A stretch of 64,000 nucleotides of DNA from sequence record OR062943.1. The stretch is one strand, 5' to 3'. Shown here piece by piece: positions 8,256-43,552 of this stretch. The notes under the pieces were generated by a model, which saw nothing but the letters and a program-made list of their open reading frames with translations, searched no databases and had not been told where the DNA came from. A program made the translations under genes and the position numbers. Each line of letters opens with the position of its first letter. Positions within the stretch are counted from its first letter, which is position 1. This DNA is from Escherichia phage 241Ecol014PP.

Positions 8256-9296
8256 ATGTCAAAACCTAGTTTTCCATTAGAGATTTGGGCAGAGGAGGAT
8301 CAGGTTCTGCCTAACACCCACAGACAGAACAGGCTACGCCCGATTGATGATTTGTGGAGAAAAGGTTGGGATCTTGGTCAAAAGCCCTCATGTGAAGAAC
8401 TTAACTATATTTTCAATATGCTCGGGACTTGGGCAAAATACATTGCTGACGAGCAGATCCCCGCTCAAGAAGGCCGTTATCTGGTACGTGATAATAACTT
8501 GAGTGATCTTTTGAACATTCCTGTTGCCCGTAGAAACCTTGGGATTATTACTAAGGAAGAGGCAGACGCCAGGTATGTAAAAGTTACAGGTGATACAATG
8601 ACAGGCCCACTGGGTTTGCAACGTATCAACTTTAAAGCTGCCGAGACAGATAAGGCTTGGATAGAGACAACTATTGGCCCAGATAAGACAACTCTCGACT
8701 TTGGGTTAAGTGATAATATTGGGTCGTTTGATGATGGTGGCACATCTACAATAGATGCGTTTCGTTGGAGATTCCAGCCAACTCAGCCGGATATTAATCC
8801 AGAGTTCACTTTGATGTACCTTAACGCGATCACGGCTAACCGTGCGCTGTTGAAAGTGGTCGGCAATGTTGAAGTTGTCGATAACATGAGGTGCAATAAC
8901 CTTACTATCAGCAATACAGCAACATTCACCAACTGTAATGTGGCTAGTCAGTTGACGGCTGGGTCAGTATATGTTAATGGTGGTGCAAGTTGTGACAGTA
9001 TGGTTGTAAGAAGCCAGCACTGTGTTGTAGGTAACAGAAATGTGGTTCGCTCTGTGAACGGAGTGACGGCTAACGGTAACGGTGATGTAACGATCACTAT
9101 CCCGCAGACGGGTGTGCAAGACATCAGAATCGGTGCAAGACTTGTGGACGGCGTTTCTGAATCTCCAATCCGCAACGGCTACGTTGTCACAGGCTGGCAT
9201 TTCGGTGACAAAAAAGAGATGCGTGGTTCAACTTACTGGGCAGGACCTTTACAAAAACTTGTAAATGGTCAATGGATCACTGTTAATTATGCATAG
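8256..9296 (+). CDS. tail fibre protein, paralogue A
   Basis: 346 aa; N-terminus PLEIWA..LPN and C-terminus QKLVNGQWITVNYA shared with ORF 10308-11354; Gly/Asn/Thr-rich beta-type centre. Confidence 0.55.
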   Translation: MSKPSFPLEIWAEEDQVLPNTHRQNRLRPIDDLWRKGWDLGQKPSCEELNYIFNMLGTWAKYIADEQIPAQEGRYLVRDNNLSDLLNIPVARRNLGIITKEEADARYVKVTGDTMTGPLGLQRINFKAAETDKAWIETTIGPDKTTLDFGLSDNIGSFDDGGTSTIDAFRWRFQPTQPDINPEFTLMYLNAITANRALLKVVGNVEVVDNMRCNNLTISNTATFTNCNVASQLTAGSVYVNGGASCDSMVVRSQHCVVGNRNVVRSVNGVTANGNGDVTITIPQTGVQDIRIGARLVDGVSESPIRNGYVVTGWHFGDKKEMRGSTYWAGPLQKLVNGQWITVNYA

Positions 9297-9906: not shown

Positions 9907-10221
9907 GTGGAGTTGGATTTGGCGGCATTGTACGGTATCTGCATGGGTACCGTTGTCCCGATCTGTGTATGGGCTTTCAACCAGTGGCACACCAAATGGA
10001 AAGGCATTTCCAAGAGGTTGGAAGAGCTGGAGAAAGACCTCATCTTAGTGAAAAACAGTATGGTTACAAAAGATAAACTTGATTCCGTTATAGAGACCCG
10101 GTTAAGCAAGCTAGAGGCCGATATTAACGACCTTAAGCAGGATGTCAGGACAGATGTCTCCGGCATCAGAGCCGATGTACAAAAGATTTTGCACATGCTC
10201 GTAGAGCATAGTAAAAGGTAA
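9907..10221 (+). CDS. membrane-anchored coiled-coil protein
   Basis: GTG start after GGAGG; one N-terminal hydrophobic helix then heptad-like LEELEKDL..LSKLEADINDLKQD. Confidence 0.35.
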   Translation: MELDLAALYGICMGTVVPICVWAFNQWHTKWKGISKRLEELEKDLILVKNSMVTKDKLDSVIETRLSKLEADINDLKQDVRTDVSGIRADVQKILHMLVEHSKR

Positions 10222-10307: not shown

Positions 10308-11354
10308 GTGATGACTAAACCAGTTATCCCTCTTGATATTTGGGCCAATCAGGATGTTGTGCTTGAAAATACGGGAGAGTTGAATAAGTCTCAACCAAAA
10401 AAAGAAGAGAGATTGAAAGGTTGGGATATGACACAAAGAGTGGCATGTGAAGTTGTTAACTTTGAACTTCACATGCTTTCTGCGTGGTTAAAGCATTTAA
10501 CAGAAGATGTTGTCCCAGGATGGGATAATAGATTCTTAAGGGTCACTAATAATCTAGCAGACGTTCCAGACAAAGCTGCTGCACGTCAAGTTCTCAATGT
10601 ATACTCGCCTGAAGAAATGGACGATCTGTATGTTGACAAGTCTGGAGACATAATGACTCAGACTCAAACTTTAGGCCTTCAAAGAATCGAGTTTGCATCT
10701 GCGTCAACAGACAATGCGGCAATATATACCACCATAACTCCAGACAAGACGACGATGGACTTCTGGATTATGGACAACATCGGTGGTGCTGACGGCACAG
10801 ACCTTGATGATCCTTCTCACCAAATAGACGGGTTCCGTTGGAGATTTCAACCTTCTGGTGGGCAGCCTGTGTTTTCGGCTATGAAGCTCAATGCTATAAC
10901 TGCCAACCGTGCAAGACTGGCTATCCAAGGAAATCTTGAATGCAACGATGCAAAAAGTTCCTCTGCAAATGCCAATGCGGTCACGATACCAAGAGCCACT
11001 GTTAACGGACAACAATCCTGCGGAAGCGCTCAAATAGGTGGAAGAGTTGATTGTAACGATGAAACCGTTAGAGGCCAATATGCAACCGTTGGTGGAAGAA
11101 ACGTGGTCCGCAGGGTAAACGGTAACAGCGCAGACGGTAGTGGTAACCTTACTGTCCCTATGCCCAGTAGAGGGGTTGACGATGTAAGGATAGCGAACCG
11201 TTTCAAAACCACCTACAGAGAGTCAAGAGTCTACCCTGGACATGTGATGTGCTCTGGTAACTACGCTTATAAACACCCTTATCAAGGTGATTACTGGACA
11301 GGTGCTATCCAAAAACTTGTAAACGGTCAATGGATCACTATATCTTATGCTTAA
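10308..11354 (+). CDS. tail fibre protein, paralogue B
   Basis: 348 aa; likely ATG at 10311 after AGGAGAA; homologous end-to-end with 8256-9296, identical C-terminal QKLVNGQWIT motif. Confidence 0.55.
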   Translation: MMTKPVIPLDIWANQDVVLENTGELNKSQPKKEERLKGWDMTQRVACEVVNFELHMLSAWLKHLTEDVVPGWDNRFLRVTNNLADVPDKAAARQVLNVYSPEEMDDLYVDKSGDIMTQTQTLGLQRIEFASASTDNAAIYTTITPDKTTMDFWIMDNIGGADGTDLDDPSHQIDGFRWRFQPSGGQPVFSAMKLNAITANRARLAIQGNLECNDAKSSSANANAVTIPRATVNGQQSCGSAQIGGRVDCNDETVRGQYATVGGRNVVRRVNGNSADGSGNLTVPMPSRGVDDVRIANRFKTTYRESRVYPGHVMCSGNYAYKHPYQGDYWTGAIQKLVNGQWITISYA

Positions 11355-11641: not shown

Positions 11642-13387
11642 ATGGCGCAAGACATGACAAGCTTCGAGCAGGCGGTAGATCAAGTAATTGTTGATTCTGA
11701 ACGTTTGCACTTGATTGTCAACGGTAACGCTGTGGATGAAGTTGTCGTAGAGGATGGGACCACTATCCCTACGGTACGAAAAGCCATGCTTGACACCCTT
11801 TATTTTAAAACGCCACCAATCCCTTGGGCGTATGGTGCATCCACAACAGTTTTTAACCAGTTGTATGAGTTTAAAGGGGATACAGGCACTCAGTGGTGGT
11901 ACGCCCCAGCAGCATCAAAATCTAACCCGGTTAGAATGCCAGCAGATCCTTCACAATCTCCAAACTGGAGATTATACACCGACTCTGCAGTAATGGCAAA
12001 ATACTACGCAAAACTTAACAGCCCAAGGTTCGAAGGTGACCCGCGAGTACCTACACCTCCAATGGACGATAAGTCAGAGTCCATAGCAAACACAGAGTTT
12101 GTTGTTGACTATGTTGATAGCATATTTAAAGCCATGGAGGGGATGAAAGTTACTGTAGGATCTTTGGTGGTAAAAGGTCTTACAGAACTCGCTAACACTA
12201 TAGTTGGTGGCACCCTTACCTTACATGGACCTGTTAATGGGGCAGATTCTACTGCACGCTTTAGGAATCTAATCCTCACGGCAAATACTTCTACACTTAC
12301 TTTTGCGTGGAGCGATCCTAAGCATGCAGACTGGAGAAGTACAGAGCTGCAACCTCATGAAGTGTCCACCCACAGGGTTATAGCTGACACTATAACTTCT
12401 GGGAAACCAGTGGCTAATAATAACGATGTGCATTTTGATGGTCTGGGTAATAACTTTTTTGACTACGTGTACATTCGTGGTAATGCCATGAAGGCAGCAA
12501 CCGAGCCGACATTGCAGGTCGATGGGACCGCCAGGGTTAAGAACCTTGAGGTGACAGGCACCGTTACAGGGATAACATACTCTGTCGATGGCACCATGAT
12601 CTACCCTAGCTATATTGAAAGCACGGGTGATGCATTGATAAATGGCGATTTGGAGGTTGGCGGATCTGTAGTTATTCGAGGTACAGCCTCTATCCAAAAC
12701 ATAGCTCTGAATACCCTAAGAGTCAATGAGCGTGCAACTTTTGAAGGGGAAGGACTTACAGCCAACAAAGGTGTAATTACCGAGCTGACAACCACTACTT
12801 TAACTGCAACAACTGCAAACTCTGAAAACTGCAACGTTACCAGAAACTTGCAGGTAAATGGAGATGTTAGTTTAAACGCAGCAGGGACGGGCACCACCTA
12901 CCTTCACAACCTTGAAATATCCGGCACAGTGACTGGGTGGCTGCCAGACTTCTCTAATGTCAACTTTGTTTGTAATGGCATTAACTCCAGTGGCAAGATA
13001 ACCACCTCTCAAGAAATTGAGGCGGGTAAAACCATTACTGCCCCTACTTTCCACGCAGGAAAGGTAGATTTTGATTTAGAGGAGGTTGACGCGTCCAGTG
13101 GGACATGGACACCTAACGGGCAGGCCAGTATGTATGTTGTCCACGCGAAAGGGGATTTTACAATAGGACAATGGCCTGGGACATCAGCGGAAGATAAACC
13201 TTATCCATTCACTGCAGTTATCTATGTCATTCAGGATGCTGTAGGTCACAACGTGACTTTGCACGATAAGTATGCTATCCTGTCGGCAACACCTGTTATT
13301 AACAACAAGGCTAACAGTGTTACCTTGCTGCAATTAACGTATTGTGGTGTTGGTGATATTGTAGACGTAGTAATTGCACAACGTTAA
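11642..13387 (+). CDS. tail fibre / tail spike-like protein
   Basis: 581 aa, Thr/Gly/Asn-rich beta-helix-like repeats (LTATTANSEN.., GTGTTYLHNLEISGTVTG). Confidence 0.45.
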   Translation: MAQDMTSFEQAVDQVIVDSERLHLIVNGNAVDEVVVEDGTTIPTVRKAMLDTLYFKTPPIPWAYGASTTVFNQLYEFKGDTGTQWWYAPAASKSNPVRMPADPSQSPNWRLYTDSAVMAKYYAKLNSPRFEGDPRVPTPPMDDKSESIANTEFVVDYVDSIFKAMEGMKVTVGSLVVKGLTELANTIVGGTLTLHGPVNGADSTARFRNLILTANTSTLTFAWSDPKHADWRSTELQPHEVSTHRVIADTITSGKPVANNNDVHFDGLGNNFFDYVYIRGNAMKAATEPTLQVDGTARVKNLEVTGTVTGITYSVDGTMIYPSYIESTGDALINGDLEVGGSVVIRGTASIQNIALNTLRVNERATFEGEGLTANKGVITELTTTTLTATTANSENCNVTRNLQVNGDVSLNAAGTGTTYLHNLEISGTVTGWLPDFSNVNFVCNGINSSGKITTSQEIEAGKTITAPTFHAGKVDFDLEEVDASSGTWTPNGQASMYVVHAKGDFTIGQWPGTSAEDKPYPFTAVIYVIQDAVGHNVTLHDKYAILSATPVINNKANSVTLLQLTYCGVGDIVDVVIAQR

Positions 13388-13396
13388 TATATCTAA

Positions 13397-13421
13397 CCGC
13401 TCCTGACGGGGCGGTTTTCTT
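13397..13421 (+). terminator. rho-independent terminator
   Basis: hairpin CCGCTCC-TGAC-GGGGCGG then TTTTCTT. Confidence 0.55.
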
Positions 13422-13435
13422 ATCTGGAGAACACA

Positions 13436-16400
13436 ATGCTTCCAATCCCTTTGCTAAAACTTGGTCGTCATTTCCTCGATAAGAGGGGTGGAATTAAGGA
13501 ACTTGCTGTTCTGTCATACCCAATAGACAACAGTGATGGTACAAGCAACACAGTATCCTATGTAAATAGCTTAGCTATACTTTTTGATGATGGTCAGCTT
13601 AATATTACTGGCTATAATAGGTTCGGAGAGTGTCGGACTGGAGATCTTGATACAATAAACTATCCTAATGAGGCTGCCTGGAACGTTGATCATGTGTGGA
13701 GAGCAGACCGTGCGTTTGTGATCCGAACTTTTGATAACCAGTTTTTCTACATCGGCTGCACTGCAGGGCTTATTGGGTCTGATGCTGCAGGCGGTAATGA
13801 TGTTTGTGTAAGAGAGTGGACACCTCTTCCTGAACAGATCGTTAAAGGGTTGCACCTTGACACCCACCCAGAGCGCCTTATTGAGGTGATGGGTGGTATT
13901 AACAACACTGTCTGGGTTATTGCAGAGGCAGAAGGCACTGGCATACTTAACCTGTATGGATCTGGTAACAACACCTACGGATCTTTGCATGTAGATAAAA
14001 ACCAGCATGCAACCCCTGTAAAGATTGGTGAGACATCGGAAAATCCTGAAACAGGCCCTTGGAAAAACCCAAGCATCAACTGTGAGGTGCATGACAACTC
14101 TGTTATTTTCGGTGGTCCTAGGGGTTTCTGGATTGCTGGATACGACTTTCTAAGAAATAACAGTAGAAACGACCTTGTTTGGCCTCCTGTGCAGATTACT
14201 CGTAACGATTTGAGAGGCATTCCTGCAGATGAGGAGTGGAAAGGGTTTATGTGCGGTCCTAACGGGGCAATAATTGCCACACAGAGGATGCACACACCTA
14301 ATGACCAGCAGCTTGTTAACGTATTCTACGGGCAAGACGTTTGGGGAGATGACACATGGCGTTCCTTAAATATCACCTACACCCATGAGGTGATAATGGC
14401 TCGTGGATACGGCACAAGTGGCATTTTCTTCAATAATGGCACTAAACAGTATCGTGGATTCTCTCGCAACTTGTGTAATGATATTGGTGCACAATCTGCA
14501 AACAATAGCCCTAGGGCTAATTTTATCCACTATCAGGCTCTTGCTACAGCTAAATATGTTGAGCAACGCCTGCCAGTTAGCTGGACAGAGAGTGTTTATT
14601 TCCAAGGCATCCACAGGGAAGGTTTCTTAGGAACCTTTACTGTTGTTAATGGCAAACTTTGGTGGTCAGGCATCCCAAGGGGAAGTTTTGCAGGCTCTAA
14701 CAACCTGTTTGGCGGCAGACTTAATAGCCAGGGGTTCACAGAGGTTCCTGAGAATTGGTATAAAAATGTCCCGGTAGATAGTTGGGGTGTTGATGATATT
14801 TTCGACGTTAACGGTGTTAGCAGCGTTAGCAATATTTACATTGGTGACACGGTCAAGATGAAATTGAAGCCTCAGCCAGAGGGGGCTACGTTCATTATTG
14901 ACAAGATTGAACTGGTAAATGCTGCAGGCACGGTTGTTACAGATGCAAATTACCAATTCTCCACCAACTGGAACCACGGCGGGGCCAACGAAGTTGTTGT
15001 TACCCAATATAACAGAAATGTTAACAGACGTGGACTGTACTCTGTAAAAATAACCTATCATGACAAACATGGCACAGGCAGAACCCACACAACAAGGACT
15101 TTGAACTGGAACACTATCGTCCCAGCGTACCCGTCTGATGGTAAATGGCATACTGTCGGTAGAAACAAACAGTTCCATGTTAATGATACTGTATACTTTG
15201 GGCTGAATGCGGCTCAGCCTGCAGTAGAAGGGGATACATCGTATATGGTCAGACTCCACAGAATGGATGCTGGATCAGTAACTTATGATGTTACCCAAGA
15301 GATTTATAATCAGCGACGAAATACCTATGATAACTTGGTGCAGACACAGGCCTTATGGGAGTTCAACCCAAACGGCAGAGGTGGTAAAATGTTGCAGGTC
15401 AATGAACAAAACGGGACATCGTTGACTGTCCATGAACATCCAAATCCTTGGCCTGATCCTGGAAAACCTAACTCTGGTGCTCGTACACTGAAAATTGTTA
15501 GCCATGATGCAGGATATTTCGGAATACGCTGGGAAGCCACAGTAAGATATGCCGACGGGACAACAAACAATATAGGGATCACCCTTGGTGGCACTAGTGA
15601 GGATAACTCACTGAAAATTGCCTACACCCCTAGAGGCATCTCTATTGACAATATGGATGTTGTTCGCAACGGTTACGGCGATGTGAATGTCAAAGTTACT
15701 CTTGGCGAACATCTTGGTGGGGAAAGGATCATCATGTATGCCTTTGATCATGATCCGCGCACCAATGGGACTTATGCAAATCAGGCATGGAGTTATCTGA
15801 TAAATGCACCTGAGCCGAATACTAAAGAGTTCTACTACGGTATGAAGCGAGATGTGTGCAAGAAAACAGGAACACATGACTGGATTGCTATCTGCGTTAA
15901 AGATGAGCGCACAGCTTGGGATGAGCCTGTTAACAGATGGTTCATAGGTATTCCTACCAGAAGTGATAAGTATGTCGCAGAATATATTGTATGCATGGGC
16001 GGTACCAACCTAAACATGTGTTGGAACGAAGATGTAAACAAATACTCTGATTATGACTATATGAGGGATTACTCTTGTAATTTGTGGTTTAACCAAACTA
16101 CAGGTTACCCTCCGCGTCAGGCAAGGGTAAATCCTGCAATCTTTACAGATACGCAGGTTTTCTTGACAAAACAGGCCAACGAGGTCCAGACCTTCAAGAA
16201 CAAATACGACCCTAATAAGTGGTTCTATAACTGCTATGGGGCATTTTTCTGGGGACCTGGAGAATTACCTGGTGGTGGCTCTTGTTTTGAGGCTGCAACT
16301 TACGCCAGTGACAGATTTATGGGCCAGGTCAAGAAATACAAGATAATTCCAGGGCCTGAAACTTTAGGCAACGCTGTCGACCCCTATATCATCATGAGTG

Positions 16401-19072
16401 ATCTAAGATCGAACATGGATGGAACATCCATATCTATGCAAGTTCCGGTAACAAACGGATACAAGCGTGTTGTGATGATCATTAAGTGCGATCTGATAGG
16501 TAAGCAAGTTCTTGCAGAGAACGGAACTTCCACCCACCTATTTGAGACTGCTCTGCACTATCAGTTTGCTGATTCACCTTTTGCAGGGGATAAGAGAATA
16601 TCTGACACAGACGCTGTGCGATGCAAGAAATTTATGCTAGGTGGTGGGTGGTGGTGGTATGAATTTGACTTAACAGACAAATTCACCGACACGTCTAAAG
16701 TAGTGACGGGGCTTCGTCTAGACCTTGGCGAAAACATGCACAAAAGTGTTTGTGATGGCACCTACGGTGACCCAACAATCTACTTAAAGTATGTCTCTTT
16801 TGAGCACCCAGAGGATGTTGTTTATGGTCCAAAACTGAGACTGTTTGGCAATTGGATTGCTAAAGACAGGGTAGGTATGGGCAAGAAGGTAAGAGGCTTC
16901 TTAATGGATGCCGGTACAGAGGACATGCTAGTCAATGCAGTGTGGCCTGAATTACCTGGGACTCAGTGGAACAACTCAGCCAAATCTATAAACTGGTTCA
17001 ATATCCACAGGGCTATGTGGACAACCAACTGTTACCTGTGGAAAGAGCTGAATGACGGCGCTTTCGGGTTCACAGGCGGCAGAAGAATGGCAATCATTTG
17101 CTGGACAACGTTGCAAAGATGTTATGACCATGACTACGAGATTGGAGGTAGGGCATGGAAAAATATTAGGGATAGAATCATAACCAACTTTGCAGATCCT
17201 AACGGTGGTGGAGCGTATGGCTTCGACTGCAGCAGGCTCATCCATTTGAACGGATCCTCTGCCTACAAGAAAGAAGGTTACTCTGGGTCTATGATAGAAT
17301 GGGGCCTGGTGAAAGATGCTCGCGTGCTGATGGGTCAACAACTTGCTGCTGCAATAGGTCCTAATGCAGTGCAATCTGTTAAACCTGCGTGGTTTGATAT
17401 CCCATTGTGGTCATCCGGTACACCAGGAACTGCTGCAATCAACCCTACCACGGGGGATCTGGAAATCTCTTGGGAGGACTTGAAGCAGGTTGGAGGCTGG
17501 GATAAAACAGGGTATCAGGTCCAGTGGTGGAGGGCTGATGGATCTTTAGCCGCTGATGAGTTTGTTAAGGACAATTTCTACACCATGTCCTCTGCAAAAG
17601 CACAGCAATTATTTGGTCAGGCCACTCCGTCAACGATCACCATGTCTATGTGCTGTAAAGACAACAGGACTGGAGCTTTGGGGCCAAGGGTTGCTAAGGT
17701 TTTCTCAGGTATTAAATGGAATCTCCCTGTTCAAAGTGTTTCATGGAAGCAAATAGGTGATAACAAGCTGCTGGTTACCCCTGCCTGTCAGTTCAACGCA
17801 ACTCTTAACGTTGATCCTGCTGTTGCGGCAAACTCAGCTAAAGCTTCTGACTTCTCTGTGTCTAACACTGCTATGGCAGATGTGAGGAAGATTGACACAC
17901 TGAACGCCAGAATTACCTGTAAAAACACTTATGGCACATTCCAAATCATCAACAACTTCACAGATGCTGATTCTAAGGTAGTAAGGACAGCAAGCCAGAC
18001 TCTGAGTTTAGGGACTCTAGCCTATGCGGCCATGATCACCGAACAGTCGGCAACACTCCAAGGAGGCGGTGTAGGCAAGTCCATTGCAACACCTGTGTGG
18101 AAGCCGAATGAGTGGGTTGTGTTTGATTTGACTGTGGACTTCTCCAGTGATAATAACTGGACATGGGTAAGGAATTGTTTGTCACAGTTGATGGGCGGTC
18201 CAAGCTCCATTAGCGATAGTCACGACTCTACTGACCCGAGCGTGTTCCAGGTGGGTAAAACTCACCCAGAGACTGGAGAAACGTTGCCTGACAGGAAGTA
18301 TGCTTTGGTTTGCATCTCTTACGGGAAGGCAGATGTCACCTTCTCAGGGACACACACTTATAACGGAACCTACAACTTCTCAAGGAAGTATAGTCTCAAA
18401 GCAGGGAACATTGTAGACGAGGTTGGTGTGCTGTATAATCCAGGTAACGGCATAGGGATTGTGGGTGGTAAACTGCAGATGCAGGAACCTTCTATTACCC
18501 CTTCCAACGTATCCGGTATTAGAAAGACTTGGGAAAGTAGTAATACCAACATTGCAACAGTGGATGCTGCCACAGGGCTGGTAACATTTAAAGCTACTGG
18601 GAATGTCACCATAAAGTTTGTAGTTACTGATGATGCAGGGCGCAAAACGTCTTCAACATCTTTTACTGTCAAACAGATGGCACCACAGTGGAGAATGTGG
18701 ATAGGTACAGCAACAAACGGGGCATACCCTAATCCGGCAGGTACTTCTGGTATGAAGACTTTCTCTACAAGCAAACCGATGGAGTACGGCAGCGGTCCTA
18801 AGGTAGGGCAGATGGTGTACTTTGGTGCGTATATTCCTGAAATTATAGGGCTTCCTAGAAGTCAGCTTCAGTTGCTGTTTGGGGCTGGTGTTGACGATCT
18901 TGCCACTTTCGGGTATAGCGACAACATCGAGGCTGCAAGGAGTTCAGGATGGGTAGGGTTCAGAATGGAGTCTGGAAAGGAAGGCAGGATTCTAGGGACA
19001 GCCTCTATAGGTGTTATGTTCCCTGGTGACCAGCAGTATCGTCTAGAAGCCTACGCAACCTTTTCTCGTTAA
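13436..19072 (+). CDS. giant virion-associated adhesin-like protein with Big_2 Ig-like domain
   Basis: 1878-aa ORF; near C-terminus ITPSNVSGIRKTW..TGLVTFKATGNVTIKFVVTDDAGRKTSSTSFTVKQ fits bacterial Ig-like group 2 pattern. Confidence 0.5.
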   Translation: MLPIPLLKLGRHFLDKRGGIKELAVLSYPIDNSDGTSNTVSYVNSLAILFDDGQLNITGYNRFGECRTGDLDTINYPNEAAWNVDHVWRADRAFVIRTFDNQFFYIGCTAGLIGSDAAGGNDVCVREWTPLPEQIVKGLHLDTHPERLIEVMGGINNTVWVIAEAEGTGILNLYGSGNNTYGSLHVDKNQHATPVKIGETSENPETGPWKNPSINCEVHDNSVIFGGPRGFWIAGYDFLRNNSRNDLVWPPVQITRNDLRGIPADEEWKGFMCGPNGAIIATQRMHTPNDQQLVNVFYGQDVWGDDTWRSLNITYTHEVIMARGYGTSGIFFNNGTKQYRGFSRNLCNDIGAQSANNSPRANFIHYQALATAKYVEQRLPVSWTESVYFQGIHREGFLGTFTVVNGKLWWSGIPRGSFAGSNNLFGGRLNSQGFTEVPENWYKNVPVDSWGVDDIFDVNGVSSVSNIYIGDTVKMKLKPQPEGATFIIDKIELVNAAGTVVTDANYQFSTNWNHGGANEVVVTQYNRNVNRRGLYSVKITYHDKHGTGRTHTTRTLNWNTIVPAYPSDGKWHTVGRNKQFHVNDTVYFGLNAAQPAVEGDTSYMVRLHRMDAGSVTYDVTQEIYNQRRNTYDNLVQTQALWEFNPNGRGGKMLQVNEQNGTSLTVHEHPNPWPDPGKPNSGARTLKIVSHDAGYFGIRWEATVRYADGTTNNIGITLGGTSEDNSLKIAYTPRGISIDNMDVVRNGYGDVNVKVTLGEHLGGERIIMYAFDHDPRTNGTYANQAWSYLINAPEPNTKEFYYGMKRDVCKKTGTHDWIAICVKDERTAWDEPVNRWFIGIPTRSDKYVAEYIVCMGGTNLNMCWNEDVNKYSDYDYMRDYSCNLWFNQTTGYPPRQARVNPAIFTDTQVFLTKQANEVQTFKNKYDPNKWFYNCYGAFFWGPGELPGGGSCFEAATYASDRFMGQVKKYKIIPGPETLGNAVDPYIIMSDLRSNMDGTSISMQVPVTNGYKRVVMIIKCDLIGKQVLAENGTSTHLFETALHYQFADSPFAGDKRISDTDAVRCKKFMLGGGWWWYEFDLTDKFTDTSKVVTGLRLDLGENMHKSVCDGTYGDPTIYLKYVSFEHPEDVVYGPKLRLFGNWIAKDRVGMGKKVRGFLMDAGTEDMLVNAVWPELPGTQWNNSAKSINWFNIHRAMWTTNCYLWKELNDGAFGFTGGRRMAIICWTTLQRCYDHDYEIGGRAWKNIRDRIITNFADPNGGGAYGFDCSRLIHLNGSSAYKKEGYSGSMIEWGLVKDARVLMGQQLAAAIGPNAVQSVKPAWFDIPLWSSGTPGTAAINPTTGDLEISWEDLKQVGGWDKTGYQVQWWRADGSLAADEFVKDNFYTMSSAKAQQLFGQATPSTITMSMCCKDNRTGALGPRVAKVFSGIKWNLPVQSVSWKQIGDNKLLVTPACQFNATLNVDPAVAANSAKASDFSVSNTAMADVRKIDTLNARITCKNTYGTFQIINNFTDADSKVVRTASQTLSLGTLAYAAMITEQSATLQGGGVGKSIATPVWKPNEWVVFDLTVDFSSDNNWTWVRNCLSQLMGGPSSISDSHDSTDPSVFQVGKTHPETGETLPDRKYALVCISYGKADVTFSGTHTYNGTYNFSRKYSLKAGNIVDEVGVLYNPGNGIGIVGGKLQMQEPSITPSNVSGIRKTWESSNTNIATVDAATGLVTFKATGNVTIKFVVTDDAGRKTSSTSFTVKQMAPQWRMWIGTATNGAYPNPAGTSGMKTFSTSKPMEYGSGPKVGQMVYFGAYIPEIIGLPRSQLQLLFGAGVDDLATFGYSDNIEAARSSGWVGFRMESGKEGRILGTASIGVMFPGDQQYRLEAYATFSR

Positions 19073-19083
19073 CAAGGGGGTAA

Positions 19084-19116
19084 ATAAAAAAGGGGCCGTT
19101 TGGCCCCTTTCTTTTT
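19084..19116. terminator. bidirectional rho-independent terminator
   Basis: AAAAAA-AGGGGCC-GTTT-GGCCCCT-TTCTTTTT between convergent genes ending at 19072 (+) and 19121 (-). Confidence 0.75.
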
Positions 19117-19120
19117 ATAG

Positions 19121-19321
19121 TTAGTAATACTCCCAACATGCCCCATCTTCAGACGGCTTGACGCGCTTACCTTTATGGTCAACATAGGTATAGCCACAAC
19201 CTTCACAAATAACAGGTGCTGCATAGCCTTCCTTCCACTGATCCTCAGTGATCAGACCTTCCAAATCTTTGCAGTCAAAGCCAAACAACTCTTCAGAACA
19301 GTCTTTACAAAAATCAGCCAT
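19121..19321 (-). CDS. small Cys-rich putative zinc-binding protein
   Basis: 66 aa with CxxC...CxxC pairs. Confidence 0.4.
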   Translation of the reverse strand: MADFCKDCSEELFGFDCKDLEGLITEDQWKEGYAAPVICEGCGYTYVDHKGKRVKPSEDGACWEYY

Positions 19322-19390
19322 CTCTATCAGTCTCCATATTTAACCAATCTATATTACATATTGCCGAAGAAACAGTATTTCATTTCATCA

Positions 19391-19609
19391 TCACAGATCT
19401 CCAACAACTTCCCAAATACCCCAGTGAGCATCTATATCCTTGATAAAGTATCTTTCTCCACGGTTTGTCCACACACCTATCCCAACTTTACCATCTATCC
19501 CATTGTATACATCTGCCTCATACTCTTTGCCCGGTGTAAAGTGTACACCCATCATAAGGGCTGTTATTCCATTAGGATTTTTAAATTTAACAAATTTTAC
19601 TTTGCTCAT
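19391..19609 (-). CDS. hypothetical protein
   Basis: 72-aa ORF in co-directional minus-strand block. Confidence 0.4.
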   Translation of the reverse strand: MSKVKFVKFKNPNGITALMMGVHFTPGKEYEADVYNGIDGKVGIGVWTNRGERYFIKDIDAHWGIWEVVGDL

Positions 19610-19610
19610 A

Positions 19611-19940
19611 TTACTTAATCCTTGCAGTTACAGTAGCGCTATACCCCATGTAGTTATGAGACATAAAGAATGTAAGCCCTTTAAGTTCAGGATTCTTTCT
19701 AAGAAATCGTTTCAATTTTCGAATGCAATTAACACCATGATCATAGTTTGAGAAATTAAATTTAATACCCTGCTCCATCATAGTGCACACTTCTTCATGG
19801 GTATGCCATTGTCTATCGTGGTCACAAAACCAGTAACCAATACCTTCTTTTTCTTGGATATGCAATCCCCAAAATACTTTATGCATTGGATATTTTGGTT
19901 TTCTACCATGATAATGTAGTTTAATATTCACATGTGCCAT
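19611..19940 (-). CDS. hypothetical protein
   Basis: 109-aa ORF, stop-start coupled with downstream gene. Confidence 0.4.
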   Translation of the reverse strand: MAHVNIKLHYHGRKPKYPMHKVFWGLHIQEKEGIGYWFCDHDRQWHTHEEVCTMMEQGIKFNFSNYDHGVNCIRKLKRFLRKNPELKGLTFFMSHNYMGYSATVTARIK

Positions 19941-39883: not shown

Positions 39884-42800
39884 ATGAGCATGTATAGCTT
39901 CGATTTTGAGGCCTCCGGGCTTTTGGAAGACCCAGATCTTTATTACCACTGCGGCCTGTTTAAAGAGCTGAATAAGAACCGTTTTATGCTGTTCCTCCCT
40001 CTAAATGACCGCACACACTACTCCGAGGAGGATATAGAGAAGGCTAAGAACTTCATTCTGGCAAAGAAAACTCTTTATAAAGATTTTGAAGTTCGCATAG
40101 CAGATTTTTCGGAGTTGGAAGGTTGGCTTACAGGCAATTCCGACTGGTCACCAACAGCTTTGAACTGCCATAACTGCTACAGTTATGACTTTATGCTGAT
40201 GGAGAAATTATCCGGTATTCATTTTGATATGTTCCGTGATCCTAAATGCATGGGTACTATCAACGATCACCAGGTTAACCTGTTCGATACGTTGGCGATG
40301 AGCCGAATCTTGTGGCCTGATCGCCCTTTACCAAAAGGTTGTCCGGACTCTGTATTCAACCCGGTTACTAAGAAAATGCAGCCTGTTGGTGCCCACGGCC
40401 TTATGGCATGGGGCTACGCCCTTGGTAACCAGAAAGTTCAAATTGATGACTGGCGTGATCTTCCGTTGTGGAAGTATGTGGATCGTGTATTCGAGGACGT
40501 TATCATCCAGGAGCTGCTCTGGAAAGAGCTGGTAGCGGAATCAAAAGGTGTATTCTACGGCAAATCTGACATGCAGAACTTTATGTACGATCCTGCCAAA
40601 GAGAAGCCGAAAGGGTTCAAGAAGATCACCTGGAAGAACGCATTACGCCGGGGTATGCTGCAGCACTTCCTGATGGAGCTGCAGGCCCGTCAGGGTGTAT
40701 ACTTCGACATAGATGGAGCTATTGCTTTACGTGACCGTTGCGATGCGTGGATGAAAGAGATCGCTGATCGTGTTGAACCTCAACTTCCTTTAAAAGAGTT
40801 GTCAATGTCTCAGCGGCCCAAGTTCCCTGAAAAGCCGTTTAACCAAGATGGGACAATCTCCAATAATGGTTGGAAATGGTTAAAAGATAAGCTTGGCTAT
40901 CCTGTGGACATGAGTGCTTTAGAGTTCAAAGCCCCGCCTAAGCGAGCATTTACCTCCACAGGAGATGTCAGCAAGATGGGGATAAAATGGTGTGAAGAGA
41001 TGGGCTGCAAAGACCCCGATAAGATGGCTGATTTCTTGAGAGGCTATATTAAGGGCACTTCCACACCACACCCTTTACCTAAAGAGCTGATGGATCAGGC
41101 GATAAGTGATCTACAGCAGAAGCGAATGCCGGACTGCAAGATACCTATGAAAATCAGCAATCAGGACGACATTAAGCGATACCTGATCAGTGCTGGTTGG
41201 CTTCCGACAATGTGGAGAACTAAGGATGTAACTAAAGACAGCAAGAAGAAAGCTCTACCTGATGCAGATGTTGATGCACGAGTATATGCATATATGGACG
41301 AGCTTTTAGAGTCAGAGTATTGTGATCTGATTATCAACTTCTGGAACAAAACTGATGCTAAGTTCCAGACAACCGTGCACAAGTTCCGAAGCTTTCCTAA
41401 CTCCGAAAGGATTAAAAAGGAAGTGTTCGGGAAAATACGTAGAAAAGCCAGAGCACTTATTACTTCTCCGCAGCTGAAAGATACGTTTGGACACCTATGC
41501 CCAAATCTTGAAAAATTGAACGGAGAGATGGCTAAAGATATCGTCTTGTGGTTATCATTGCGAAACCGCAGATCGGTCCTTGATCCAATCAAGGAGGATA
41601 AGGTTGATACTGGTCTTCTTAATCACCCACGTTTGAAGATTGACCATAAGCTTCCTGCTAAAAGTTCTGGGTTAACAAACACTTCCCGACAGAAACACAG
41701 TATTTGTGCAAACATGCCTAAACCATCTCCTAAAGTGGTTATGGGTAAAGAGATGCGTAGTCTGTGGGGTGTTCCTCCAGGATACTTTGAGATCGGTATT
41801 GACGGGTCCAACTTAGAGCAGCTTATCGGGGCTTGGGGTGCCTTTGAGTTCGACAACGGCCTGTATTATGATGTTGTAAGTAACGGCGATGCACACTGTT
41901 ATTCAGGAGATACACAAATTCTCACGGAGAAAGGGTGGGTGAGGTTTGAAGATCTTGATCCGGGAACACAAGTGTTCCAGTACGATCACAACACCTCGTC
42001 GATGAACCTTGTTACTCCATTAAATTACGTTAAGCGTAGTTATTGTGGGGATATGTATCATTTCCACAACAGCAGTGTGGATTTTATGGTTACAGATCAA
42101 CACAGGATGCTGACCGTGGATCACAGAAGCAATAAATTGTTTGAAGATTTGGCAAAAGACCTGAAAGCAGGTAAAGGGTCTAATTCAGGAAGAAGGTTTA
42201 TCCATGCGGCAGAGTTTTATGGGAATACAACCTTATCTCCTGCCCAGATTAATTTGCTTATTGCTATTCACGATGATGGGCACTTGCATACAAATAAGGA
42301 CGGCAGCATCGTGTGCAGGATTCAGGTCGGGAAGGGCAGAAAAGTTGCAACGCTTTTAGATACTTTTTCTGCTCTAAGCCTTAGTTATGTAGAGCAGAGC
42401 GGGAAAACCACAAAAGGGGGCTTACTGGCGAGAAGGTTCCAATTCCACGTTCCGTCCTGGGTATTTGAGTTTTTGGACAGCAATAAGGATTTCACCTACA
42501 ACCTGATGGACCTTGATAAAGAATCTAAAAACCTGTTTATAGCTTCTTTATCTAACTGGGACGGATGGGTATCTTCCGAAGGTGGAAAAGTTGCCTACTA
42601 CTCTCAGTCCGAGTGCAGGAAGAAATCTGTAGAGGTTGTGTCTGCGCTGGCTACTCAGTGTGGTTTACGGAATAATACGGTGGCGATTCACAAAAAAGGT
42701 CGTTCCGTACAGCACAGAATCACGATTGGTAGCAAACAGAGAGCAGGGTTGCTGACACTATCTAAAGAGTCTGTCGAGGTGAGTGGTTCTTTGGTTTATT

Positions 42801-43276
42801 GCGTTACCGTCCCTTCTGGAGCAATCATTGTGAGAAGGAATGGTAAAGTGGCAGTGTGCGGTAACTGTAATAACGCCAAAGCTTACTCTTCTGTAGCAGG
42901 CAAGGAGATTTCCCGTAACGATGGTAAGCCTGTCACGTATGGGGTTATGTACGGGGCACAAAAAGATAAAGTTGCAGATATGCTGGATATCTCCCCAGAG
43001 TTGGGGCAAAGGGTGATCGATGCACTTTGGGATGCCAACCCCGGTCTTAAGGGGCGCAAAGAGGATCTGGAGAAATTCTGGGAAGCAACAGGTAAGAAGT
43101 TTATCTACTCTTTTGATGGTCATGCTATCTGGACTCGATCTAAACACTCTTTACTTAATGCATACCAACAAAATGGTGGTGCATCGCTGTGTGACTTAGT
43201 TGGGATACTCATGCACCACCAAATGGTGAAGCGTGGGTGGTACGATGAAGGTGTTCGTCGTATTATTTATTACCAT
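39884..43276 (+). CDS. family-A DNA polymerase, exon 1 (contains intein)
   Basis: Exo I FDFEASGL; motif A-like IDGSNLEQL; motif B-like RNDGKPVTYGVMYGA; ORF stops 2 codons after the His expected to begin motif C (HDE). Confidence 0.7.
41897..42865 (+). mobile_element. intein (323 aa) within DNA polymerase, putative LAGLIDADG endonuclease core
   Basis: in-frame insert between motifs A and B: starts CYSGDTQILTEKG, block B-like VTDQHRM, ends VYCVTV..NGKVAVCGN with +1 Cys; LLIAIHDDGHL and FIASLSNWDGW candidate LAGLIDADG motifs. Confidence 0.65.
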
Positions 43277-43552
43277 AAATAACATTGTGGCTTCATAGAG
43301 TAATCTATGTCGAATAACCTCTTTAACTGCGGGAAGCCTAAACCTTATGGCAAGGTAATCCGCAACGAAGCGCTCAAAAGAGCGAACGCTCAGAGGCCAT
43401 TCCGAAAGGAAGTAGACCAGCAAGTGCGGTCGAAATGGGAGGATTCCTGTGGTTGCTTATCATAGGAATATGAGATGGTCCGATCCTACGTGAAAACGTA
43501 TGGCTATGCACGTAATGGTGCGGGGTAGCTTAACGACCTACCTGAACTATTG
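43277..43552 (+). mobile_element. group I self-splicing intron (ORF-less) in DNA polymerase gene
   Basis: 276 nt; exon 1 ends ..CCAU pairing with GUGG guide at 43287-43290; P-like CTGCGGGAAG 43327, Q-like AATCCGCAAC 43357, P7 AGACCA 43414 / TGGTC 43476; last nt G; joins H|DE of motif C. Confidence 0.6.

Follow-up and report, generated by a model that had tools for sequence, protein, structure and literature searches.

What part does a very large protein, encoded at the end of the fibre genes of an rV5-like phage, play on the virion? The window analyzed is a 64,000-nucleotide stretch of DNA from Escherichia phage 241Ecol014PP (OR062943.1), whose source genome is that of an rV5-like Vequintavirus. 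A preliminary description singled out an 1878-residue reading frame at the end of the structural module, noted an Ig-like Big_2 domain near its C-terminus, and proposed the protein as a second adhesin. The observation was confirmed: the single open reading frame is real, and it does lie at the end of the fibre gene block, of which it is the largest product. The interpretation was supported in part. The protein is still best read as a candidate second adhesin; the adhesive role appears to have been placed on the wrong domain. The features are collected in Table 1.

The protein is of an ordinary kind, already known as sequence. The phrog_15684 profile covers residues 1-1878 of 1878 (E=0), which places it in the orthologue group of rV5 gp27 (ABI79098.1). 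The two proteins have 96% amino acid identity across all 1878 residues; position, synteny and flanking terminator match as well, and nothing material differs. Orthologues are found in more than 100 sequenced phages, under annotations that range from "hypothetical" to "lateral tail fiber protein with intimin domain", the latter in the BASEL collection. As an orthologue it is already catalogued and annotated; what is new here refines its architecture. The preliminary description had missed this widely sequenced orthologue, and also an N-terminal RCC1-like propeller, a domain resembling carbohydrate-binding modules (CBM-like) and an orphan central region.

Table 1. Features at and around the 1878-residue reading frame (nucleotide positions in the window; approximate residue limits are marked ~)
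Feature	Residues	Position	Strand	Remarks
C-terminus (105 aa) of upstream fibre	477-581	13070-13384	+	gene 11642-13387
Terminator-like hairpin		13395-13416	+	9-bp stem, tetraloop, U-rich run; between upstream fibre gene and reading frame
Ribosome-binding site GGAG		13426-13429	+	6 nt before ATG; conserved in L004/L005/rV5
Open reading frame	1878 aa	13436-19072	+	orthologue of rV5 gp27, PHROG 15684
Probable RCC1-like β-propeller	1-440	13436-14755	+	most conserved module
Three β-sandwich (Ig-like) domains	~450-850	14783-15985	+	AF2 strand pattern
Orphan region, part 1	~851-965	15986-16330	+	predicted partly helical, pLDDT <50
β-sandwich (~150 aa), CBM-like	~966-1125	16331-16810	+	
Orphan region, part 2	~1126-1330	16811-17425	+	helical prediction, pLDDT <50
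FN3/Ig-like domain	~1331-1433	17426-17734	+	AF2 pLDDT 57-80
β-sandwich domain	~1434-1584	17735-18187	+	pLDDT 64-86
Two Ig-like domains, the second Big_2	~1585-1750	18188-18685	+	pLDDT 79-93
Terminal domain	~1751-1878	18686-19069	+	allelic unit; pLDDT only 44-73
Terminator hairpin at the end of the late fibre operon		19089-19110	+	-18 kcal/mol

The gene is the last of the late tail-fibre operon, co-oriented with the fibre and baseplate genes, and is followed by a terminator and a strand switch. In the rV5 record, both strands carry an annotated terminator at the corresponding site. Synteny is identical in homologues at 40-53% identity and likewise in phAPEC8, SSE121 and PVP-SE1. The protein is the most diverged of its module (40% identity versus 44-79% for the neighbours). 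The hairpin 5' of the gene has a folding energy of -16.7 kcal/mol (z=-3.8) and is preserved across three versions of the stem sequence, one in the window and rV5, one in L004/L005 and one in phAPEC8. Covariation supports the stem: 97% of cells are paired, five of nine pairs show compensatory changes, and none of 500 shuffles was as good. With its GC-rich stem-loop, U-run and conserved structure it has the features of an intrinsic (rho-independent) terminator, as annotated in the phAPEC8 and Alma records, and termination is predicted there. The hairpin and the ribosome-binding site leave no space for a promoter between them.

The N-terminal ~440 residues probably form an RCC1-like β-propeller, to judge from relatives in other genera. 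Identity in this module is 68-72% among homologues whose C-termini have only 13-35%. The module is common to shorter proteins at the equivalent position elsewhere, phAPEC8 gp086 (891 amino acids) and PVP-SE1 gene 40/SSE121 AFU63689 (604 amino acids, 'tail protein'). gp086 aligns with residues 1-197 of the window protein at 41% identity (E=6e-28), matches WD40_RLD at 6e-11, and finds RPGR, UVR8 and HERC2 in the PDB. The N-terminal module of PVP-SE1 gene 40 is 31% identical to the window protein, and the protein behaves in a similar way in these searches. Both pass the RCC1 repeat cut-off of 21.7 bits (24 bits for gp086, 36 for gene 40). Within the window protein's own family WD40_RLD is matched in 12 of 16 members, with E values of 1e-4 or weaker that are all below the gathering score. 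In the window protein no RCC1-like propeller profile (PF00415/PF25390) rises above the gathering score, the only match being RCC1_2 at E=0.27. The N-terminal family profile gave no PDB match at E up to 10, an hhalign self-comparison of the region gave no significant internal repeats (E=0.53, Neff 1.4), and the AF2 model of residues 1-440 is unreliable (pLDDT <50). Seven Gly-rich, blade-like motifs can be picked out in the region by eye only.

The shorter proteins share more than this module. Like the window protein, gp086 and PVP-SE1 gene 40 continue from the RCC1-like N-terminus into Big_2 domains, and their genes are also last in the fibre block with a hairpin terminator 5'. However, they lack the ~1000-residue middle with its extra sandwiches, CBM-like domain and orphan region. 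Also, gp086 ends in a module like the head fibre of the Rhodobacter gene transfer agent (RcGTA), which the window protein does not have.

Beyond the propeller, about eight β-sandwich domains, one of them CBM-like, are arranged around a region of ~350 residues without detectable relatives. The structure was predicted in two halves from a sole alignment of 16 sequences; sub-region and profile searches of a 5.8-billion-protein set for deeper alignments gave only fragments. The model of the N-terminal half has a mean pLDDT of 47 and is unusable except at residues 735-850, and that of the C-terminal half (57) is usable at residues 970-1120 and 1330-1760 only. In the first three sandwiches the pLDDT is 55-77 at residues 450-565, low at 566-730 and 75-87 at 735-850. 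A weak match to Bact_surface_Ig-like at residues ~506-558 recurs in 12 of 16 members, and this part of the protein is a mosaic among homologues (23% versus 54-62% identity). The CBM-like sandwich resembles carbohydrate-binding modules in the predicted model, and its sugar binding is putative. The FN3/Ig-like domain, which has tandem-Ig/FN3 fold matches, ends a block that is conserved in all homologues. The sandwich after it is replaced in most of them, with 13-17% identity to P0003-P0015. Divergence grows toward the C-terminus, and the mosaicism proceeds domain by domain.

The Big_2 domain (PF02368) has its core at residues 1682-1733 (nucleotides 18479-18634) and scores 35.3 bits against a gathering score of 22.8, above the Pfam cut-off. 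Its Ig-like β-sandwich fold was supported by profile search and by structure prediction, two of the checks that the preliminary description had named. The PDB matches of the region are intimin and Sap. Ig-like domains of phages are reported to occur almost exclusively on virion proteins (Fraser et al. 2006, J Mol Biol). The evidence points to this domain as a conserved stalk element and not as the seat of adhesion, the unit that differs between alleles being the ~130 residues beyond it. Compared with phage MaxTheCat, the protein has 95-100% identity up to residue ~1740 and 53-77% beyond, and allelic replacement is confined to the last ~130-138 residues. The C-terminal 294 residues of cultured Vequintaviruses fall into two groups, with ~74 records at at least 90% and ~39 at 77-82%; of the two C-terminal alleles, the window copy has the more frequent one. 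The terminal domain is a candidate for the ligand-binding tip.

Exposed strings of Ig domains are also found in virion proteins of the T4 Hoc type, which are non-essential and thought to adhere weakly to glycans. The fold matches of the window protein include the C-terminal Ig domain of lambda gpV, T5 pb6, N4 gp65 and a Hoc-like protein. A head-attached fibre, like Hoc or the single-subunit head fibre of RcGTA, would be a monomeric, capsid-anchored chain of beads that adheres loosely to capsules, mucus and other surfaces. The Hoc-like tandem-Ig architecture, with its BFVD match to a Hoc-like protein, is consistent with such a fibre, and phrog_215, which matches residues 1592-1877 (the C-terminal 290 residues), is classed 'head and packaging'. 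Hoc, however, is a ~40 kDa protein that is encoded with the head genes and binds hexamer centres. At five times the size of Hoc, the window protein also contains a propeller and an orphan domain. Its gene stands among those for the fibres; in every genus examined it lies in the tail-fibre block and not in the head block. No capsid-binding domain was found, and the similarity to Hoc is one of generic tandem-Ig fold. The comparison with RcGTA runs through gp086, whose C-terminus is homologous to the head spike fibre Rcc01080 (E=5.7e-14), but that module is absent from the window protein and is also found in siphophage 'minor tail proteins'. Rcc01080 is a flexible, glycan-binding accessory fibre of a single subunit that helps first contact. 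It has no detectable homology to the window protein, and it is held on the capsid by a short hydrophobic N-terminal peptide via a pentameric base. In the window protein's family the N-terminus is hydrophobic and invariant, M-(L/F)-P-I-P; its resemblance to that peptide is an impression only, and a penton-base protein is not known for these phages. In the capsid of phi92, a phage without this gene, the major capsid protein and a cement protein are the only ones seen. A head location is highly improbable.

The BASEL annotation implies a true lateral tail fibre, one of three, which would be a trimer and, as the primary receptor-binding protein, necessary for recognising the host. The 'intimin domain' in that label overstates the case, because the similarity is limited to one Ig domain of ~50 residues. 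The Big_2 domain type is shared with intimin/invasin adhesins (PDB intimin E ~1e-3). In contrast to these, the window protein has neither an outer-membrane β-barrel anchor nor a C-type-lectin-like tip, and the NCBIfam intimin model reaches 22.6 bits against a cut-off of 1400, with 39 residues matched. Virions of the phi92 type show three sets of lateral fibres, rV5 has thin 70-nm fibres, and the protein is big enough for a long fibre. However, searches of Pfam, PHROG and NCBIfam found no coiled coil, β-helix, collagen repeat, intramolecular chaperone or known N-terminal anchor, and no domain of a trimeric tail fibre or tailspike. The architecture, a propeller plus sandwich domains that are separate in the models, is typical of monomeric surface proteins. 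Receptor dependence (ECA/NGR, LPS core) is attributed to other fibre proteins, and whole groups of related phages do without the gene (see below). A primary lateral fibre is improbable. Fibre candidates of phi92 that resemble 'head spike gp52 of Pa223' were considered as relatives and rejected; Pa223 gp52 is a trimeric β-helix and unrelated.

The orphan centre raises a different question. Part 2 contains the motifs GTEDMLVNxVWP, NWFNxHRAMW, CWxxLxRCY, EIGGxxW and EGYxxSMIEWG, invariant as read from the columns of alignments A2 and A4. Neither PDB nor Pfam had a match, at E up to 10, to a family profile of the orphan region. An exhaustive phmmer search of residues 700-1878 against 1.84 billion proteins found only Big_2 relatives outside the family, and all remote matches were on the domain pair containing Big_2. 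The centre (residues ~850-1330) might be a novel catalytic domain that degrades glycans or modifies surfaces, targeted to its substrate by the Ig and CBM domains and acting on the virion or freed at lysis. Short motifs with many invariant His, Arg, Glu, Trp, Tyr and Cys residues, kept in homologues down to 40% identity, would fit an enzyme. So would the CBM-like domain that flanks the centre and is interleaved with it, as in many glycoside hydrolases and lyases, the enzymatic domains of neighbouring fibres in the module, and the poor detection by mass spectrometry in virions. But no enzyme family was detected in the protein in Pfam, NCBIfam or PDB, nor any similarity to one among the 1.84 billion representatives. 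No catalytic-domain fold was matched, in a part where the model is unreliable, and no signal peptide is evident by eye. That the protein is chiefly an enzyme or a non-structural factor is unlikely.

The distribution of the gene bears on whether it is needed. It is absent in Mydovirus, and no propeller homologue was found in phi92-like phages. In phage V18 the copy has decayed to a pseudogene with seven deletions beside an intact neighbour gene, and the copy of ECP26 has a nonsense codon that is perhaps a genuine lesion. Split copies were considered as a sign of dispensability and discarded: the neighbouring 1279-aa fibre gene, used as control, has the same per-residue rate (3/57 versus 5/60), so single-base splits may be assembly errors. 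DNA polymerase was unsuitable as a disruption baseline because most relatives lack the insertion present here. In the virion the evidence is weak for rV5 gp27, with three mostly non-tryptic peptides (3.1% coverage) by mass spectrometry; detection of the 604-aa PVP-SE1 homologue is probable.

In phages T2 and T6 gp38 sits on the tip of gp37, and in the branched tailspikes of G7C and CBA120, too, the gene after a fibre gene encodes a product that binds the fibre. The locus resembles these arrangements in that, between genera, only the C-terminus of the fibre and the N-terminus of the next protein are conserved. The upstream fibre and phAPEC8 gp087 are alike only at the C-terminus (51% identity, E=5e-27), which is encoded directly 5' of the propeller-Ig gene in both genera. 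This C-terminus is proposed as the putative site at which the propeller would dock. The window protein is not homologous to gp38 or tailspike adaptor domains, and the interaction is putative. Strict co-occurrence of the fibre C-terminus with the propeller gene was rejected, as Mydovirus has the former and not the propeller-Ig gene.

The chances are about even that the virion carries this protein as an optional accessory adhesin fibre, present in low copy number and anchored by its propeller. The propeller end would be the invariant module that attaches the protein to the tail, possibly through the C-terminal domain that is conserved in the product of the preceding fibre gene. The chain of beads would form a flexible stalk pointing outward; with no sign of a trimeric shaft, it is probably one polypeptide. 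Weak, reversible contacts of the CBM-like domain and of the variable terminal domain with surface glycans would make productive adsorption likelier, the committed receptor steps being left to other fibres and the short tail fibres. Expression would come solely from read-through of the conserved upstream hairpin, which would keep the copy number low. The protein would be dispensable for plaque formation, and this would explain why sister genera lack the gene and why the V18 copy has decayed.

A more speculative proposal, which we hold unlikely, is that propeller-Ig proteins of 604 to ~1900 residues make up a class of monomeric 'fibre-on-fibre' adhesins that has gone unrecognised. The RCC1-like propeller would clamp the trimeric fibre encoded before it by that fibre's conserved C-terminal knob, and read-through of the terminator would determine the copy number. 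The Vequintavirus orphan centre would be a novel catalytic or lectin domain directed at a substrate other than the receptor, for instance glycans of mucin or biofilms. Were this true, it could account for part of the third fibre density in virions of the rV5/phiTE type. If the orphan centre is enzymatic, it would represent a new domain family. rV5-like phages, candidates for use in therapy and biocontrol, are among the most often isolated phages of E. coli. If the protein is indeed an optional accessory adhesin whose tip can be swapped, it would offer a natural way to engineer adherence (host range, retention in mucus or biofilm) with the essential receptor machinery left untouched.

The gene under study is a single 1878-aa ORF on the plus strand, from 13436 to 19072, exactly where the preliminary description had placed it. 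The window phage is an rV5-like Vequintavirus, and the full-length gene is kept in at least 107 phage records at 92-97% nucleotide and 90-98.5% amino acid identity; the rV5 orthologue is ORF 27 (ABI79098.1, 96% identity). PHROG 15684 (function unknown) matches the protein end to end. As a sequence the protein is already known, and a literature search found no paper studying an rV5 gp27-type protein. About 15 GenBank records (MG0656xx) titled 'Campylobacter phage', with C. jejuni as host, are ordinary E. coli-type Vequintaviruses of 94-98% identity, and their host label looks doubtful.

The Big_2 Ig-like segment described near the C-terminus is found by Pfam at aa 1682-1733 (E=1.1e-8, 35.3 bits against a cut-off of 22.8). 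It is the sole domain above the curated Pfam cut-off, and AlphaFold2 also places it within an Ig-like fold. Stretches rich in Trp, Gly and Asn had been described as well; the three residues are enriched (3.0%, 10.0% and 7.1%) but are spread evenly along the protein.

Features of the 1878-aa ORF, its product and its surroundings
Feature	Position	Detail
Ribosome-binding site GGAG, + strand	6 nt 5' of the ATG	sequence reading
Shared fibre C-terminus	window 13070-13384; phAPEC8 locus (L003) 8642-8956	51% identity
Hairpin (9-bp stem, tetraloop, U-rich tail)	window 13395-13416; uncultured relative (L004) 9972-9993; L003 ~8967-8990	between upstream fibre gene and ribosome-binding site
Strong hairpin terminator	19089-19110	3' of the ORF
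12-strand sandwich, ~150 aa	aa ~970-1120	AlphaFold2, usable part of C-half
FN3/Ig-like domains	aa 1330-1570	AlphaFold2, usable part of C-half
Two Ig domains including Big_2	aa 1590-1757	AlphaFold2, confident

Across fifteen clusters of homologues, aa 1-1433 are kept, aa 1434-1584 are replaced in most and aa 1585-1860 are kept at ~36%. Segment identity falls from 68-72% at aa 1-440 to 13-35% at the C-terminus. At aa 441-730 one homologue is 23% identical and the others 54-62%, and aa 966-1125 show 70% identity in one comparison versus 25-29% in others; individual domains are swapped between homologue subgroups. With a shallow alignment, AlphaFold2 modeled the N-terminal half poorly (pLDDT 47) and the C-terminal half in part, with moderate confidence in the terminal domain. 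A fold search of a viral library yielded nothing beyond generic Ig-decorated virion proteins. The orphan centre (aa ~850-965 and ~1126-1330) carries many invariant His, Arg, Glu, Trp and Cys motifs, as an enzyme might; its AlphaFold2 confidence is low, and no relatives were found in 1.84 billion representative proteins, the PDB or Pfam. An enzyme in this region is unlikely.

In tblastn searches, aa 1-197 alone are common (~40%) to the last 'tail protein' of Phapecoctavirus, Seunavirus-like and Cronobacter myoviruses. The N-terminus matches phAPEC8 gp086 (891 aa) at 41% identity (E=6e-28), with a second match at aa 393-440. gp086 has a WD40_RLD match (6e-11) and an RCC1 repeat above cut-off followed by two Big_2 domains; its PDB matches are RPGR, UVR8 and HERC2. 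The 604-aa product of PVP-SE1 gene 40 shows the same pattern. An RCC1-like propeller can be assigned to the window protein only transitively, because a weak WD40_RLD match is present in 12 of 16 close relatives, the protein itself has none (E=0.27), and self-comparison gave no significant internal repeats in this region. At its C-terminus gp086 shows homology to the head spike fibre of RcGTA (E=5.7e-14), a single-subunit, glycan-binding fibre. This likeness would suit a head-attached fibre, but the window protein lacks the module, and such a location is very unlikely.

The opposite end is variable. Cultured Vequintaviruses form two groups in the C-terminal 294 aa, with ~74 records at 90% or above and ~39 at 77-82%. 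Compared with MaxTheCat, the protein is 95-100% identical as far as aa ~1740 and 53-77% beyond, so that the allelic unit is the terminal ~130-aa domain following Big_2. Phage host-interaction proteins usually attach by a constant end and vary at the distal one, and a conserved N-terminus with an allelic terminal domain has this polarity.

Upstream on the same strand lie baseplate wedge, baseplate, fibre, short-fibre and chaperone genes. The proposed placement at the end of the structural module was borne out: a terminator and a switch to minus-strand genes, visible in the GC skew, follow the ORF. Synteny is identical in the uncultured relatives with 40% and 53% identity, where the homologue has diverged further than any neighbour in the module (40% versus 44-79%). 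Two paralogous short-tail-fibre genes (8256-9296 and 10308-11354, +; both phrog_4465) flank a chaperone gene, and against L004 the second is much less similar (48%) than the first (72.5%). A 147-aa ORF at 19175-19618 (+) has a low-complexity translation and is probably spurious; relatives annotate only minus-strand genes there. In another uncultured relative (L005), the minus-strand genes that follow the fibre module include one for a 369-aa YadA_anchor (trimeric autotransporter) protein (17189-18298, -), with no equivalent at that position in the window phage. Elsewhere, the DNA polymerase gene (39884-43282, +) has a ~320-aa insertion at aa ~660-1000. Most Vequintaviruses lack it, and their matches form two pieces that together cover 71% of the query. 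It is similar to intein-bearing proteins from phages of mycobacteria and staphylococci, with a weak Hint-domain match at aa 672-706, and is probably an intein.

The hairpin upstream of the ORF is kept in three lineages (Vequintavirus, the uncultured relatives and phAPEC8), each with its own stem sequence. In the covariation analysis 97% of cells are paired, five of nine pairs show compensatory changes, and none of 500 shuffles scored equally. In the phAPEC8 and Alma records it bears a terminator annotation. Since it ends ~19 nt before the start codon, the simplest reading would be that the ORF is expressed by read-through, hence at low copy number. Its conservation suggests that transcripts reach the final gene of the fibre operon by regulated read-through.

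Between the upstream fibre (581 aa) and phAPEC8 gp087, similarity is confined to the C-terminal 105 aa (E=5e-27), which could be a common tip, knob or docking module; the remainder of gp087, made up of a TSP1/Gp66-type N-terminal domain and collagen repeats, is unrelated. The fibre C-terminus and the next protein's N-terminus are the two segments kept across genera, which suggests a docking pair. Linkage explains their joint conservation equally well, because in Mydovirus the fibre with the shared C-terminus is the last gene and the propeller-Ig gene is absent.

The propeller module is also absent in phi92-like phages, and product length varies by genus: 604 aa in Seunavirus, 891 aa in Phapecoctavirus and ~1900 aa in the window phage type. 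In Escherichia phage V18 (KY683736.1, 13206-18365) the orthologue is a pseudogene with seven deletions (696, 158, 153, 35, 24, 10 and 1 nt), annotated as four CDSs, and the adjoining fibre gene is intact. ECP26 has a TAT-to-TAG change at Tyr617, and single-base deletions occur in naswa and Alma. Such single-base cases may reflect errors of assembly, because split copies (5 of 60) occur no more often than in the adjacent fibre gene (3 of 57).

In rV5, mass spectrometry output lists gp27 with three peptides, nine spectra and 3.1% coverage; most of these peptides are non-tryptic and rank low, alongside unlikely matches, and the authors did not flag gp27 as structural. They reported unassigned bands at 174 and 288 kDa, a weak pointer to gp27 (208 kDa) in the virion, as no other structural-region product exceeds 150 kDa. 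The PVP-SE1 homologue was probably detected by mass spectrometry: gene 40 alone has an Ig domain, but gene numbers and locus tags there are offset by one. Recent cryo-EM work left one phi92 fibre set and a third phiTE fibre without an assigned gene. The BASEL orthologue bas53_0040 is labelled 'lateral tail fiber protein with intimin domain', which would fit a true trimeric lateral fibre, a quite unlikely reading; 'intimin domain' refers to one ~50-residue Ig domain only.

The protein belongs to an ordinary kind, the Ig-decorated accessory virion proteins, and the present refinements are modestly new. The best-supported reading, with about an even chance of being right, is that of an accessory adhesin fibre, optional and present in low copy number. 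Its anchor would be the conserved propeller end and Ig-like spacers would extend it, and it may bind glycans weakly via the CBM-like domain (aa ~966-1125) and the allelic terminal domain.
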